Shown piece after piece: positions 3,427-18,330 of a stretch of DNA of 24,081 bases. Origin of the DNA: a virus (taxonomy: Duplodnaviria; Caudoviricetes). How positions within the stretch are numbered: the stretch's first letter is position 1; every line of letters begins with the position of its first letter. The notes under the pieces were generated by a model. That model saw nothing but the letters and a program-made list of their open reading frames with translations, searched no databases and was not told the origin of the DNA. Made by a program: the position numbers and the translations under genes. The DNA is taken from positions 1 through 24,081 of IMG/VR virus record IMGVR_UViG_3300025018_000526, one strand, 5' to 3'.

Positions 3427-4224
3427 ATGAAATATTTTAGTACATTCTCTGGTATTGGAGGATTTGAACTAGGGATACAGCAGGCATATGAAAATTATAA
3501 TAGAAAACTTTTATATAAACAGGACTCCGAGAGTATATGCAAAAGTATGCCCAACGCTGAGGTCGGACAGGAGCGGGCTAATTGTATTGGATACTCAGAA
3601 ATTGATAAATACGCTATCCAAGTCTACAATAAAAAATTTAACCACAAAAATTATGGAGATATTACAAAAATCAACGCAGACGAGCTCCCCGACTTTGACC
3701 TACTCGTGGGAGGATTCCCTTGCCAATCTTTTAGCATCGCTGGTAAGCGGGGAGGATTTGAAGATACCAGAGGAACAATGTTTTTTGAACTTGCGAGAAT
3801 ACTGCGAGCAAAAAAACCTAGACTATTCATCTTTGAAAATGTTAAAGGACTTCTCAGCCATGACAGTGGGCGAACTTTTAAGACCATCATCCAAGCGCTT
3901 GATGAGCTGGGGTACGACCTACAATGGCAAGTGCTTAACAGCAAATATCACGGAGTACCGCAAAGCAGAGAGAGGGTGTTTATTGTCGGACATCTTAGAG
4001 GAACAAGTAGACCCCAAATATTTCCTATCAGAGAAGATGAAGAAATATCTAGTGAAACAACTGAGCCAAGAGAATCACAACCACAAACCAAACCTGCATC
4101 AACAATTAGAACAAAAGAGGGAACAAGATCAGACGACAACTTCGTTATTGTCAGAGAGGCAACCAGAAAAGGATATAGCGTTGCGGGGGGGCGACAGCAT
4201 AAATCTAGCAGTACCAAACAGTAA
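3427..4224 (+). CDS. DNA (cytosine-5) methyltransferase, N-terminal/alpha part (motifs I-VIII)
   Basis: FSGIGG (I), SEID (II), GDI (III), GGFPCQSFS (IV), FENVKG (VI), VPQSRERVFIVG (VIII); motifs IX and X absent. Confidence 0.9.
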   Translation: MKYFSTFSGIGGFELGIQQAYENYNRKLLYKQDSESICKSMPNAEVGQERANCIGYSEIDKYAIQVYNKKFNHKNYGDITKINADELPDFDLLVGGFPCQSFSIAGKRGGFEDTRGTMFFELARILRAKKPRLFIFENVKGLLSHDSGRTFKTIIQALDELGYDLQWQVLNSKYHGVPQSRERVFIVGHLRGTSRPQIFPIREDEEISSETTEPRESQPQTKPASTIRTKEGTRSDDNFVIVREATRKGYSVAGGRQHKSSSTKQ

Positions 4225-4480
4225 AACAAGACGAGGTAGAGTAGGAAAAGGAATAGCCCAAACACTAGATACCGGAATGCAACAGTACACGCTAACAGAC
4301 AGTGTAGTAAGAAAGCTAACACCAGTAGAATGTGAACGCCTGCAGGGATTCCCAGACGACTGGACAGACATCGGAACAGAGGGGAAAATATCAGATACGC
4401 AAAGATATAAAATGCTAGGAAACGCAGTGACCGTAAACGTGGTAGAGCATATACTAATAAAACTTGCCACCATTCTATAA
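3488..4480 (+). CDS. DNA (cytosine-5) methyltransferase, C-terminal/beta part in the +1 frame (motifs IX-X)
   Basis: RKLTPVECERLQGFPDDWT (IX), QRYKMLGNAVTV (X); frame open over 737 nt of the alpha gene. The true start is uncertain. Confidence 0.8.
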   Translation: MKIIIENFYINRTPRVYAKVCPTLRSDRSGLIVLDTQKLINTLSKSTIKNLTTKIMEILQKSTQTSSPTLTYSWEDSLANLLASLVSGEDLKIPEEQCFLNLREYCEQKNLDYSSLKMLKDFSAMTVGELLRPSSKRLMSWGTTYNGKCLTANITEYRKAERGCLLSDILEEQVDPKYFLSEKMKKYLVKQLSQENHNHKPNLHQQLEQKREQDQTTTSLLSERQPEKDIALRGGDSINLAVPNSKTRRGRVGKGIAQTLDTGMQQYTLTDSVVRKLTPVECERLQGFPDDWTDIGTEGKISDTQRYKMLGNAVTVNVVEHILIKLATIL

Positions 4481-4492
4481 ATTTGATATAAT
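4464..4492 (+). promoter_or_regulatory. Sigma70-type promoter
   Basis: TTGCCA(4464)-N17-TATAAT(4487) with extended -10 TG, upstream of 4514. Confidence 0.65.
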
Positions 4493-4513
4493 AAGACATA
4501 TAAAATAAATATT

Positions 4514-6598
4514 ATGCAAAACAAAGAATTTACAGCGGATGAAATAAAACCGTACCCAAAGAATGCGAAGAAACATCCGACAAAGCAATTACTGCAGATA
4601 GCCATGAGCATTAAGGAATTTGGCTGGCAACAACCGATCGTGGTAGACCAGAAAGGAATAATCATCGTAGGACACGGGCGATATTTTGCATATCAAAAAT
4701 TTAAAGACGAGCTAAGACTGGGAAAGCCAGAAATAAACGTATCAAAGCTAACAGAGGGGCAAGCCAGAGCCTACAGAATAGCCGACAACAAGCTCAACGA
4801 GAGCGAATGGGATGAAGATGTCCTGATCGAGGAATTGAAACAACTAGAGGCAGAACTATTCGCCCTAACAGGATTTGAAGAGGATATGATAACCGACAGC
4901 GACGTAGAAGATGACGAAGTGCCAGAGCTACCCGGAACAGCCACATCAAAACTAGGGCAAATGTACAAGCTAGGCGAACACGTAATCATGTGCGGAAACA
5001 GCACCTCGGAAGAAGATGTAAATAAGCTAATGGGGGGCGAGAAAGCTCAAATGTGTTTTACAGACCCACCATACAACATCGACTACAAAGGCGGAATGAG
5101 TACCCACAAACAGAATAAGCGAGAGGGAATCATGAACGACAAAATGAGCGATAATCACTTCTACGATTTTCTAGCAGAGGTAAGCAGACGAATCGTAGAC
5201 CACGTAAAAGGCGGGGTGTACATCTGCATGAGCTCCAGCGAACTGCCAAACCTAAAGAAAGCATGGGAGAGCAACGGAGGACACTGGCAGAGTTTTATAA
5301 TCTGGGTAAAGAACAACTTCACACTAAGCCGGGCAGACTACCAGAACACATACGAGCCAATGCTTTACGGATGGGCAGACGGAATTAAAAACCATTTTTT
5401 TATAGACCGTAGAGATATAGCAAACGTCTGGGAGGACTTAAGAGAAGTAAAAACGACATTTGACGGACAACACACCTCAATAAAATTTCAAGGCTTCGAG
5501 GTAAAGGTAGAGGGCAAGGCGAAAGGCGTAATCAAGAGGAAAAAACAGAGAATAGATATCTGGCGATACGACAAGCCGACCAAGTCAGTAGAACACCCAT
5601 GTCTACCAGCAGGAGAGTTAGTATTTATAAATAATAAATGGCAACCAATTGAAGTGGTGAAAAATGGGAAAAGTGGTTATGGTAAAATTATTGATACTAG
5701 CTCACATATTGCTAAAGAAATTATTGAAATAATGATTAAAGATGGTGTTAAAACAAGGTCAACGAGCAATCATCCATTTTTGGTATTTGAAGAAAAAAGT
5801 AATAGTATTTTTTGGAAAGAGGCTAGACTTATAAAAGAGGGAGATTTTATATTGACTAATAAAAAGATACTTGATACTATTAAACCAGTATGTATAAACA
5901 AGGAAAAGGATACATTACCAAAAAAGGGTATAAAAGAATATTCCATAACGGAAGACTCAGAATGGAACATTGTGTCGTCTGGGAGGAAAGATATGGAAAA
6001 ATACCAAAAGGTAAACAAATCCACCACAAAAATGAAAATAAACTCGACAATAGTATTGGAAACCTCCAAATTGTCAGTACGCTTGAACACAAACGGATAC
6101 ACTCTGGTTGCGAATTTAAAAATGGTAAATGGCACAAAAAGTGCAGTCAGTGTAAAGAAACAAAGCCAGTTACAAAAAAATATTGGTATTTTAGAAAAAA
6201 TGGATGGCTATCAAGCGGTGAATGCAAACAATGTGTTATCAAAAGAGTTTGTGAGAGAAGAAGAATTCGTATTGAGAGAGGTTGGAAACGTCCGAACTAT
6301 AAAAGAAAAAATAAAAGTATATAATTTAACAATTGATGGAATTCCAGCATTCGATACTTTAATAGGGGTAAGTCATAATACAATGAAACCAGTAGCCCTA
6401 TGCCTAGAGGCAGTAAAGAATAGCAGTCAGAAAGGCGACATCGTGCTAGACCTATTCCTAGGGAGCGGTAGCACATTGATAGCCAGCGAGAAAGCCGGGC
6501 GAAAATGCTACGGAATGGAGCTAGACCCAAAGTACATCGATGTGATCATAGAGAGATGGGAAAAGTACACCGGGCAGAAAGCAGAGCGAACCAACTAA
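4514..6598 (+). CDS. ParB-N-terminal domain + N6/N4 DNA methyltransferase (beta class), intein-containing
   Basis: PYPKNAKKH, FGWQQPIVVD, GHGR, YRIADNKL (ParB/Srx); FTDPPY, HP|TMKP, VLDLFLGSGSTLIA, GMELDPKY (MTase). Confidence 0.92.
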   Translation: MQNKEFTADEIKPYPKNAKKHPTKQLLQIAMSIKEFGWQQPIVVDQKGIIIVGHGRYFAYQKFKDELRLGKPEINVSKLTEGQARAYRIADNKLNESEWDEDVLIEELKQLEAELFALTGFEEDMITDSDVEDDEVPELPGTATSKLGQMYKLGEHVIMCGNSTSEEDVNKLMGGEKAQMCFTDPPYNIDYKGGMSTHKQNKREGIMNDKMSDNHFYDFLAEVSRRIVDHVKGGVYICMSSSELPNLKKAWESNGGHWQSFIIWVKNNFTLSRADYQNTYEPMLYGWADGIKNHFFIDRRDIANVWEDLREVKTTFDGQHTSIKFQGFEVKVEGKAKGVIKRKKQRIDIWRYDKPTKSVEHPCLPAGELVFINNKWQPIEVVKNGKSGYGKIIDTSSHIAKEIIEIMIKDGVKTRSTSNHPFLVFEEKSNSIFWKEARLIKEGDFILTNKKILDTIKPVCINKEKDTLPKKGIKEYSITEDSEWNIVSSGRKDMEKYQKVNKSTTKMKINSTIVLETSKLSVRLNTNGYTLVANLKMVNGTKSAVSVKKQSQLQKNIGILEKMDGYQAVNANNVLSKEFVREEEFVLREVGNVRTIKEKIKVYNLTIDGIPAFDTLIGVSHNTMKPVALCLEAVKNSSQKGDIVLDLFLGSGSTLIASEKAGRKCYGMELDPKYIDVIIERWEKYTGQKAERTN
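5852..5880 (+). promoter_or_regulatory. Internal sigma70-type promoter for the nested HNH gene
   Basis: TTGACT(5852-5857)-N17-TACTAT(5875-5880) with extended -10 TG; 9 nt before the ATG at 5890. Confidence 0.65.
5890..6324 (+). CDS. HNH homing endonuclease with C-terminal Zn finger, nested out of frame in the intein
   Basis: GYKRI..MEHCVVWE..GKIPKGKQIHHKNENKLDNSIGNLQIV..EHKRIH (HNH_3-type), then CSQC..CKQC. Confidence 0.88.
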   Translation: MYKQGKGYITKKGYKRIFHNGRLRMEHCVVWEERYGKIPKGKQIHHKNENKLDNSIGNLQIVSTLEHKRIHSGCEFKNGKWHKKCSQCKETKPVTKKYWYFRKNGWLSSGECKQCVIKRVCERRRIRIERGWKRPNYKRKNKSI

Positions 6599-6618
6599 TA
6601 AAATTATAAGCAACTAAT

Positions 6619-7026
6619 ATGAAAAAAAAGACAGCTGAAAAACAAAATAAAAAGAGAGCCGAAAAAAGAAAAAAGTTAAGAATTGAAACCCAAGCCAGAA
6701 GAATGACTAAAGCAAAACAACAAGAGGCTGTTGATCGAGCAAACAAAGTAAGAGAAATTAGAAAATACGAATTACTAGGACTAAGTGTTATTTTTAAACT
6801 TTTAAATGGCAGAGATATAAATGATAAAGATAAATTTAGCCCTGAAAGAATAGGTAAAATGTGTAAAGACTTTCTAGAAAAATACAAAAAGATGAGTAAA
6901 GAAGAACAAAAAGAATTCCACCCGCTAGTTGCTTTAGCTGAAAGAAAAGTAGATAGCCTGAAAAGATACAGAGAAATAAATAAAAAACTTTTGCAAGAAC
7001 AAAAAGAAAAAGAAGATAAAAAATAA
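6619..7026 (+). CDS. Basic, helical hypothetical protein
   Basis: 135-aa K/R/E-rich ORF. Confidence 0.6.
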   Translation: MKKKTAEKQNKKRAEKRKKLRIETQARRMTKAKQQEAVDRANKVREIRKYELLGLSVIFKLLNGRDINDKDKFSPERIGKMCKDFLEKYKKMSKEEQKEFHPLVALAERKVDSLKRYREINKKLLQEQKEKEDKK

Positions 7027-7085: not shown

Positions 7086-7394
7086 ATGAATGAAGAACTA
7101 AAAACTCTAGAAGAATTCTTAACAGCAATACTAAGCAATATTGTAAGCCAACCTGAAAAAATAGAATTACACTTCTCAGATGTAGAAGATGAACAAAAGG
7201 GTGAAATGACAATTGTTAATATCAAGGTCGCCACAGAAGACATTCCAGTATGCATAGGCGCAGGTGGAACAGTAGCTGACTCAATAAGGCGATTAGCAGT
7301 ATTAGTATGTAGGAAAATAGGATACACGAGGAATTTATTCGTAAGAGTTGATGCCCCGAAGATGCCTAAAAATCATTTTGAATTTAGAAAATAA
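7086..7394 (+). CDS. khpA: KH-domain RNA-binding protein, KhpA/YlqC-like
   Basis: EFLTAILSNIVSQPEKI...IKVATEDIPVCIGAGGTVADSIR matches the KhpA pattern with a GxxG loop. Confidence 0.75.
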   Translation: MNEELKTLEEFLTAILSNIVSQPEKIELHFSDVEDEQKGEMTIVNIKVATEDIPVCIGAGGTVADSIRRLAVLVCRKIGYTRNLFVRVDAPKMPKNHFEFRK

Positions 7395-7993: not shown

Positions 7994-8986
7994 ATGTTAA
8001 AAACAGCAGAGTGCGTAAGTCCACGTCACCCGGACAAAATGTGTGACAGAATATCAGATGCAATATTAGACTGGTATTTAAAACAAGACCCACAGGCAAG
8101 AGTAGCGGTAGAAACAATGGGAGGACACGGAAAGGTTTATATTCTTGGCGAGGTGACATCAAAAACTACGCCAATATATAAAACAGCAGTCGAGGGAATT
8201 GTAAGGGATATAACAGGCGAGGAGAATCAAGTAGAATTTAACATAGTAAATCAAAGCCCAGAGATAGCACAGGGCGTAGATACAGGAGGCGCAGGTGATC
8301 AAGGAATAATGGTCGGCTATGCTTGTAGTGAAAATGAGCAAATGATACCGCAGGAATTATATCTAGCGAGAAGTTTATGTAAATTTATATATAAACACTA
8401 CGAGTACGATGGGAAAACACAGGTGACAATAGACGAAAAAGGAACAATATACACGATAGTGGCTAGTTTTTGTAAAGTAGAGGCAAGCGAACTAAGTGAT
8501 TTAGTATACAGATGGATAGATAAAGAATTGCCAGAATATCTAAGCCCAGAGAATGATAGAGAAATAAAACTATATTGCAACCCAGCAGGAGATTGGAATC
8601 TTGGTGGGTTTTCTGCGGATACTGGACTGACAGGTAGAAAGCTAGCGGTAGATAATTACGGAACAAGAGTGCCAATAGGAGGCGGGGCATTTAGCGGAAA
8701 GGATGCAACTAAAGTAGACCGCAGTGGGGCATATATGGCACGTAAAATAGCAGTAGATATTTTAAAGAAAGAAAAGGCAGGGGAAGTGATAGTAAAGATA
8801 GCTTACTCAATAGGCGTAGCAGAGCCAGTAATGGTAACAGCCACGATAGACGGACAGGAGAAAGAGGTGACGTGCTATGACTTAAAACCGCAAGCGATCA
8901 TAGAGCAACTAAAACTAAGAAAGCCAGTATTTGAGAAGACAGCTGAATGGGGTAGCTTTGGAAATGGATTTGAATGGGATAAATAA
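7994..8986 (+). CDS. metK: S-adenosylmethionine synthetase (compact phage type)
   Basis: HPDKMCDRISDAILD, GAGDQGIMVGYA, DGKTQVT, DTGLTGRK, GGGAFSGKDATKVDRSGAY. Confidence 0.96.
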   Translation: MLKTAECVSPRHPDKMCDRISDAILDWYLKQDPQARVAVETMGGHGKVYILGEVTSKTTPIYKTAVEGIVRDITGEENQVEFNIVNQSPEIAQGVDTGGAGDQGIMVGYACSENEQMIPQELYLARSLCKFIYKHYEYDGKTQVTIDEKGTIYTIVASFCKVEASELSDLVYRWIDKELPEYLSPENDREIKLYCNPAGDWNLGGFSADTGLTGRKLAVDNYGTRVPIGGGAFSGKDATKVDRSGAYMARKIAVDILKKEKAGEVIVKIAYSIGVAEPVMVTATIDGQEKEVTCYDLKPQAIIEQLKLRKPVFEKTAEWGSFGNGFEWDK

Positions 8987-17502: not shown

Positions 17503-18330
17503 ATGTCAAGGGAATTAAACCAGTTTGAAAAGTTTCTATTAGTCCGCAAGGGCATAGGAATGGTAACCTTAAAGGGCTACAACGATAGCGTAAGGCGATT
17601 AACAAAAGTATTAAAGACAGACGAGCCGAGTCACGAGCAGATAACCGACTACATCGTGGGAATGCACGAAAAGAAATATTCCTACAGCCACATAGTAAAT
17701 ACATCACTGGCGATAGAATGGTATATGCAGTTTATAGGGCGACCAATAAAATTAGGTAGACCGAAAAAACCAAAGCACATTATCAAAGATACGCTGACAG
17801 AGGCAGAGGTGACAATGCTGATAGCCTCGTCAAAAAACATAAGAGAAAAAGCAATCATTTCATTACTAGCCTATTCGGGAATTAGAAACAAAGAATTATG
17901 TGAGCTAAGAGTATGCGATGTAAACCTCGGCGACAATATGCTAAGAGTTTTAGAGGGCAAGGGGAAAAAGGATAGGCTAATAAATATAAGCGGTGACTGC
18001 TCGAGAATACTGATAAATTATTTAAACTATTATCAAAGACGACCGGACGATTATTTATTTACAACTTTAAGGGAAAATAAAAGGTACGGAACGAGCGACC
18101 TGCGAAAGCTAGTGAATGTTTTAAAAAATCGTGCTAAAATAAATAAGAGAATATATCCGCACCTTTTAAGACATAGCCTAGCAACCAACCTGCTAAAGCG
18201 AGGGGCAAATATATATTTAATAAAAGAACAGCTCGGGCATACATTTATAGAAACGACAGAAGTATATTTGAGGAGTTTTCCGATTGACATCAAACATCAA
18301 TATCAAATGTACGTGCCAAGCTATGTATAA
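17503..18330 (+). CDS. Tyrosine recombinase (XerC/D-like)
   Basis: Complete catalytic set: YSGIRNKEL (R), GKGKKDR (K), HLLRH, LGH, TTEVY; short N-terminal core-binding domain and no arm-binding domain. Confidence 0.93.
   Translation: MSRELNQFEKFLLVRKGIGMVTLKGYNDSVRRLTKVLKTDEPSHEQITDYIVGMHEKKYSYSHIVNTSLAIEWYMQFIGRPIKLGRPKKPKHIIKDTLTEAEVTMLIASSKNIREKAIISLLAYSGIRNKELCELRVCDVNLGDNMLRVLEGKGKKDRLINISGDCSRILINYLNYYQRRPDDYLFTTLRENKRYGTSDLRKLVNVLKNRAKINKRIYPHLLRHSLATNLLKRGANIYLIKEQLGHTFIETTEVYLRSFPIDIKHQYQMYVPSYV

Follow-up and report, generated by a model that had tools for sequence, protein, structure and literature searches.

A class-1 intein and a conserved frame-3 HNH endonuclease gene within one phage DNA methylase gene

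The window is the whole stretch of DNA analysed (24,081 nucleotides, positions 1 to 24,081 of the Caudoviricetes record IMGVR_UViG_3300025018_000526). It contains a DNA methylase gene split by an intein, and the features of the gene and the intein are the following.

4514–6598, + strand: host gene, precursor with a ParB-like domain and a beta-class N6/N4 DNA methyltransferase (PF01555, 100 bits)
5600–6379, + strand: class-1 intein of 260 aa, C1...H259 N260 / T, at HP/TMKP
5600–5872, + strand: N-terminal Hint half, residues 1–91, including block B T55xxH58 (5762–5773); pLDDT 95–98, pN/pS 0.34 in 13 pairs
6257–6379, + strand: C-terminal Hint half, residues 220–260; last 18 codons pN/pS 0.17

The precursor ORF encodes 694 aa, or 434 aa minus the intein, and its ParB-like part gives a weak match to TIGR00180, under the cutoff of that profile. 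The intein possesses the class-1 residues C1, T55-S-N-H58 of block B, H259-N260 and T+1, as well as the Hint fold of this class; about 124 of its residues match the canonical Hint core. The initial annotation had described a complete C1...HN/T intein splitting the methylase motif HP/TMKP, with coordinates and frames that proved right, and the Pfam Intein_splicing profile scores 40.1 bits (cutoff 35.8). Across the family, C1 is found in 51/51 inteins, and the C-terminal junction is HN-T in 50 and HN-C in one. The block F position is occupied by Asn242, invariant in 47/47 inteins; Asp is the usual residue in the block F consensus. The intein-less product aligns without gaps, at 81–87%, to eight intein-free homologs, which fixes the intein boundaries. 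The intein is likely to splice autocatalytically, restoring the 434-aa methylase. A group I or II intron carrying an HEG was rejected: no Rfam match was found to E 1 in 4400–6800, the host frame is open and the intein motifs are under selection. The in-frame middle between the splicing halves contains no known endonuclease, the endonuclease ORF being located in another frame, and the AlphaFold model of the intein is disordered at residues 97–147 and 176–215.

Upstream of this gene, a C5 cytosine methylase at 3427–4480 is represented by two ORFs in different frames with an overlap of about 740 nt.

3427–4224: C5 methylase ORF 1, PF00145 profile positions 1–181
3488–4480: C5 methylase ORF 2, PF00145 profile positions 176–321

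The pair resembles the two-polypeptide C5 methylases M.AquI and M.EcoHK31I, or else a single gene with a frameshift in which neither frame is closed. The window also encodes a tyrosine integrase amid the head-gene region, a SAM synthetase (MetK) near the phage's two methylases and a KhpA-like KH protein (17503–18330, 7994–8986 and 7086–7394).

The second gene of the element is nested in the intein.

5890–6324, + strand: nested frame-3 (−1) ORF, HNH_3 nuclease (residues 1–72, I-HmuI-like), zinc finger and basic tail
6142–6234, + strand: CxxC-CxxC zinc finger of the nested HNH

The ORF encodes 144 aa, starts with ATG and ends with TAA; its translation shares no alignment with that of the intein. 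Intein codons V240-Y241-N242 provide the TAA stop, and the tail of the HNH shares its DNA with the first 22 codons of the C-terminal Hint half, including the intein strands V228–Y241. The HNH_3 profile matches at 54.6 bits (cutoff 24.8), so that the reading of the −1 frame as an HNH and a zinc finger with their own ATG and a stop inside block F is borne out, and in profile searches of both frames each frame matched its expected domain above cutoff. Residues H46, N58, H67 and H71 and the four zinc cysteines are invariant in 34/34 members; H45 and N54 are present in at least 90% of the 34. The beta-beta-alpha-metal motif is intact, the model has a pLDDT of 91.6 and the top fold match is I-HmuI (reference structure PDB 1u3e). 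An EndoVII-like subtype was rejected, as all 34 aligned members match HNH_3 only and the top fold is I-HmuI; the PHROG 'endonuclease VII' match is limited to residues 83–136, which are the zinc finger.

A search with the intein region yielded 50 full-length homologs among 2008 candidates, 31–61% identical, all of them in methylases at H[PS]/C...HN/[TC]. Sixty loci were fetched, of which 40 with full-length intein matches were examined and 20 partial ones left out (the window is locus L032). The frame-3 HNH is present in 40/40 of these loci, two of them (L009 and L054) with a truncated copy, and 39 have an open intein frame; the openness of both frames, first noted in the window, is thus shared by homologs. 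After removal of six duplicates, 34 loci remain; an ATG lies upstream of the conserved KGY motif in 32 of them, and the HNH stops at the same V-Y-N codons in 19. Several members are decaying: L009 has a premature HNH stop, L054/P0050 has lost the HNH start and N-half, the HNH active site of L059 is changed from HH to PH, and L038 has one stop in the intein frame. A mini-intein of 168 aa is P0051, and the VGSV strand is lost in P0052 and P0053.

Selection was studied in 27 loci (three broken and four near-duplicate ones left out) as 13 disjoint pairs. Across the overlap, pN/pS is 0.34 for the HNH frame, 1.03 for that of the intein and 1.38 for the third; in the Hint halves it is 0.34 (N-terminal) and 0.17 (C-terminal). 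When synonymous codons were redrawn holding the HNH protein, 7.4 intein-frame stops were expected in the window gene and 0/1000 draws were stop-free. Over the 27 loci, 0 intein-frame stops were observed versus 151 expected, a count favoured by the loci having been found via the intein frame; the third frame contains 369 stops versus 361 expected. The HNH is a separate gene under purifying selection, which answers which of the two frames in the collected inteins is so constrained, and the open intein frame is beyond chance.

The distribution of the intein is patchy. It is present in one of the 120 closest exteins (the best 120 of 256) and absent from 119; the motif HPTxK is uninterrupted in 117 of the same 120. 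The GC-content of the intein is 31% versus 45–49% in the exteins. Hint and HNH identities correlate with each other (rho 0.62) more than with C-extein identity (0.38 and 0.37). Run X1 also has an empty allele, 87% alike, in which exactly the remaining 223 N-extein bases lie before the join to 6380. X2, a contig of a different study, has 41 differences from the window in 5000–5596 (summed over records 8–10), the last being 3 nt before the intein, and none in 5597–6900. The patchy distribution and junction-bounded identity are consistent with recent homing; the X2 boundary could also be ordinary phage mosaicism, because identity continues for more than 500 nt downstream. The HNH is likely to nick the empty allele near the insertion site, driving homing. 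The nicking HNH homing endonucleases I-HmuI and I-BasI have been described as nicking 3 nt downstream of their insertion sites (PMC3017599).

Since these loci had been found via the intein frame, a search was also run from the HNH side, giving at least 524 viral relatives. Among the best 80 of them, 12 are intein-nested (loci already known), 55 are nested, again in this frame, within a host ORF that is open and gives no Hint match, and 13 have a closed host frame. An HPTxK-like motif then follows in 42/44 non-redundant nested loci, and 11 of the 13 free HNHs adjoin a methylase gene, as judged by eye from motifs. The HNH family appears to be specialised on methylase genes and to occur in three states: intein-nested, intein-less nested and free. 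A quick unrooted tree places 24 intein-nested and four free HNHs on one branch (SH-aLRT 99), with L008, L013 and L014 elsewhere; a single origin is not rejected (AU p 0.385), and the tree gives no definite order of events. The four free HNHs within the intein-nested clade (L064, L072, L077 and L087) are possible escapes from an intein; three retain the GWKRK tail overlapping intein strand VGSV and two retain the upstream element. In the intein-less nested loci (55 of the 80 loci L061–L140), the HNH lies just upstream of HPTxKP. Often these loci have sigma70 promoters that are close to perfect, 12/12 in five, and that are spelled by host codons such as GLDxxxTVKYN. In L079 and L118, the host methylase ORF stops right after HPT, the intein insertion site in other genes.

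One part of the intein middle coincides with the active site of the nuclease.

6047–6115, + strand: dual-coding block, intein residues 150–172, [LF]x4Lx3Lx3GxTx[VI], over HNH residues 53–75 (N58, H67, H71)

The block spans 23 codons conserved in both reading frames, and its motif is found in 51/51 intein proteins. Shortened inteins of 184 and 168 aa lack most of the middle and keep the block, which is modelled as beta-alpha-beta with pLDDT 93–96. The middle had been described as carrying no endonuclease motif, which stands, and as featureless between blocks B and F, which does not, given residues 150–172. Among 128 HNH columns with a free wobble base, nine are near-invariant: six in the block, two in the Hint overlap and one elsewhere. 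The block has a synonymous difference of 0.28, compared with 0.26 for the Hint overlap and 0.46–0.48 elsewhere. The six wobble bases of the block, which belong to HNH codons 56, 61, 65, 69, 71 and 73, are fixed in 29/29 intein loci. They vary in 43 intein-less relatives that share the HNH motif, where the third base of Arg69 is G in 9/43, that of codon 73 is T in 2/43 and that of His71 is C in 18/43.

The expression of the HNH was considered from two signals upstream of, and just inside, its reading frame.

5852–5880, + strand: predicted internal sigma70-type promoter TTGACT-17-TACTAT for the HNH (9/12; geometry in six related loci; family enrichment)
5920–5926, + strand: slippery heptamer A AAA AAG in the intein frame (window and 9 other loci of 28)

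The promoter ends 9 nt before the HNH ATG; the predicted transcript start, 5887, is 3 nt upstream of this codon, and there is no Shine-Dalgarno (SD) sequence. Taken alone, the window promoter is within chance (8 sites versus 6.4 ± 2.3 in shuffles). In six loci (L032, L001, L002, L033, L034 and L035), the −10 box is followed by xAAACC with a purine at the expected start and by the ATG 6 or 9 nt past the box; SD pairing is absent in five of the six. Many loci without the promoter segment have strong SD sites instead. Scored as at least 9/12 within 40 nt upstream of the HNH ATG, promoters occur in 8/29 intein loci versus 5.8% of control windows, the other 21 scoring lower, in 18/44 intein-less nested relatives versus 2.6% of controls (two starts mis-picked) and in 0/11 free HNH loci. 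The HNH probably has a promoter and start of its own, so that it could be expressed without reliance on splicing. This agrees with one part of the proposal that overprinting uncouples homing from host translation and splicing, namely a separate, selected gene. The two genes are not simply uncoupled: intein and HNH are interlocked in DNA, because the selected intein block lies exactly over the active-site codons of the HNH, whose tail overlaps V228–Y241.

The −10 box of this promoter is overlapped by a sequence resembling the downstream splice junction.

6378–6394, + strand: downstream splice junction and C-extein start (TMKPV), presumed 3′ half of the homing site; HPTMKP is intact in intein-free alleles, and the target role is putative
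5874–5890, + strand: copy of 6378–6394, 15/17, overlapping the −10 box; candidate operator

The next best match to the junction within the window is 13/17, and the copy matches the empty site at 13/17. An internal xxKP copy is present in 34/51 inteins and tends to follow the M/Q/E codon of the extein: with TMKP exteins, the copy residue is M or I (5/5); with TQKP, it is Q (18), L (7), H (1) or M (1); with TEKP, it is E (1) or L (1). In an 11-base test with at least 9/11 required, 10/28 inteins carry the copy (own versus permuted target p 0.011, for a motif noticed before testing and in related loci); in intein-less relatives the same test found no enrichment (2/42, permutation p 0.20). In a TQKP subgroup (L004, L036, L037, L043, L046, L055 and L072), the junction-like copy, 40–60 nt upstream of the HNH ATG, forms the 3′ arm of a hairpin predicted with no shuffle control; a −10-like hexamer in or beside its loop recalls T4 endonuclease regulatory hairpins.

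Several explanations of these observations were compared. That the two frames result from an assembly or sequencing artefact, or from a decayed in-frame HNH intein with compensating frameshifts, is hardly credible: X2 spans 5548–6512 with no gaps and three substitutions, all in the N-extein, no indels relative to the window were found in X1 or X2, the frame relation is identical in 40/40 loci, and selection acts on the HNH and on intein-frame stops. The block is read as the result of protein-level selection on an intein piece recruited from the shadow frame of the HNH. Its bases could also be fixed as a signal in DNA or RNA or through inheritance of codon choice, leaving the intein middle as pure filler; the intein-frame pN/pS of 1.03 over the HNH as a whole, the relatedness of the loci and the fact that AlphaFold confidence can track alignment conservation are in line with this. 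We consider it unlikely, as the fixed wobble bases are the middle bases of intein codons, and the residues are held while the codons change: Leu162 is retained via TTG, CTG, TTA and CTC, Gly166 via all four codons, Leu158 and Leu162 switch from TTG to CTG where the HNH residue changes, and L/F and V/I are swapped. Moreover, third-base identity across the whole HNH is just 0.51, the pattern is lost in the four free-standing HNHs of the same clade, and there is no Rfam match. The recruited piece is more likely to be accessory or stabilising than to be a strand of the core, because a match to the Hint core is possible in its absence; as the core of about 124 residues could come from the two Hint halves by themselves, splicing need not require the block.

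The route by which the HNH is made has an alternative as well. A programmed −1 frameshift from the methylase/intein frame would yield the HNH as a fusion: A AAA AAG is a classical bacterial slippery heptamer, it lies in the right frame at HNH codons 11–13 of the window, and nine other loci share it at the same site. This route is very improbable, since 18/28 loci, including the closest relative L001, have no heptamer there, K-K-G codons in AT-rich DNA yield it by default, and an ATG is found just upstream in 32/34 loci with a promoter or an SD site. As for its regulation, the HNH might repress itself in the style of I-TevI by binding the junction copy at its −10 box; we rate this slightly below even odds because the motif was noticed before testing and the loci are related. 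A little better than even is the chance that the copy has no operator role and is a relic of the original HNH insertion or a by-product of the −10 box and discriminator. The copy is missing in 17/51 inteins and not enriched in intein-less relatives, a similar duplication is described at the ShiLan insert (PMC11855218), and in one subgroup the copy is the hairpin arm mentioned above; on the other hand, it persists across inteins just about 40–60% identical and follows the TMKP/TQKP/TEKP codon of the extein, with the p value of 0.011 for own versus permuted target. For I-TevI, autorepression was demonstrated experimentally, with a homing-site copy (15/20) overlapping its own promoter (PMC2988022). 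The placement of the copy over the endonuclease's own promoter is alike (15/20 there, 15/17 here), but I-TevI is a GIY-YIG enzyme that has a T4 late promoter and resides in a group I intron, and the parallel here is a sequence match alone.

The overprinted design, initially regarded as a departure from the in-frame norm, has precedents (10.1101/2025.01.02.630785; 10.64898/2026.09.14.751524). Gosselin, Arsenault and Gogarten described non-canonical inteins of actinobacteriophages, hosted by DNA polymerase, minor capsid, terminase and thymidylate synthase genes and encoding an endonuclease VII-like HEN in frame 3, as well as antisense LAGLIDADG/VSR endonucleases in inteins (10.1101/2025.01.02.630785). 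As described there, these share with the window a full intein, an unstructured in-frame middle, an endonuclease in frame 3 on the same strand and a proposed origin by invasion of a free-standing HEN; the window differs in its HNH_3/I-HmuI-like enzyme with a C-terminal zinc finger and its N6/N4 methylase host. The cyanobacterial dnaX intein with a +2-frame LAGLIDADG HEN (Phillips, DeSimone and Gogarten, 10.64898/2026.09.14.751524) is alike in its overlapping frames, omega (dN/dS) < 1 in the HEN frame and coexisting intein-free, mini and full alleles, and unlike in its LAGLIDADG enzyme, SD motifs and bacterial chromosome; its main text mentions no internal promoter, and the covered parts report no intein-frame element conserved inside the HEN. 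The ShiLan domain is a hidden frame-3 HNH in phage methylases (Arsenault, Gosselin and Gogarten, PMC11855218), with an HNH and zinc finger in frame 3, an open host frame, proposed leaderless initiation and an insert start resembling the downstream flank. It has no splicing domain as described, unlike the window, where a complete Hint domain surrounds the nested HNH; a ShiLan-type insertion was rejected for this reason. In their layout, the 55 relatives of the best 80 (of at least 524) that are nested and intein-less resemble ShiLan. The word 'promoter' is absent from the main texts of all three reports (10.1101/2025.01.02.630785, 10.64898/2026.09.14.751524 and PMC11855218), and 'operator' from that of the first. 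Out-of-frame intein endonucleases are known, and the additions made here are the dual-coding block over the HNH active site, the likely promoter with the junction copy across it, and the finding that this HNH family also exists without an intein, both within methylases and free next to them.

Taken together, the locus is best read, with a probability of roughly 0.75, as a two-gene mobile element in a phage methylase, composed of a likely splicing class-1 intein and a conserved frame-3 HNH with a predicted promoter of its own, likely homing into empty HP/TMKP sites. The host mRNA would be read through the element, and splicing of the intein would restore the methylase. The promoter at 5852–5880 would give a near-leaderless HNH mRNA, and relatives without it would mostly use an SD site on the host mRNA. 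Near the insertion site of the empty allele, the I-HmuI-like HNH would make a nick, the repair of which would copy the element. As to its origin, a methylase-targeting HNH gene of the wider family may have settled in an intein, which may then have taken the shadow-frame product of the active-site codons of the HNH (residues 150–172) into use as a folded accessory piece; self-repression of the HNH through the junction copy on its −10 box is the less certain step. A more far-reaching version, in which the piece built from the shadow frame is needed for the intein to fold or splice, so that mini-inteins must keep it, and the HNH is transcribed near-leaderless from the intein-internal promoter and self-repressed via a copy of its homing half-site, is rather doubtful. 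If true, it would show protein structure emerging de novo through overprinting in a case that can be dated, with a series from free HNH through intein-less nested HNH to intein-locked HNH.

Out-of-frame intein endonucleases were first reported in 2025–26 (10.1101/2025.01.02.630785; 10.64898/2026.09.14.751524). The present family is a small testable case with a predicted promoter, start site, operator and target. To our knowledge, nobody has shown an expression route for such an enzyme. These overlaps need not stay passive, as the intein frame has gained its own constraint exactly on the catalytic codons of the nuclease, for which the 43 intein-less relatives are a natural control. Standard annotation sees these inteins as endonuclease-less, and active homing elements in phage methylases are therefore missed. 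The HNH family, with its at least 524 viral relatives, may be a source of small nickases.
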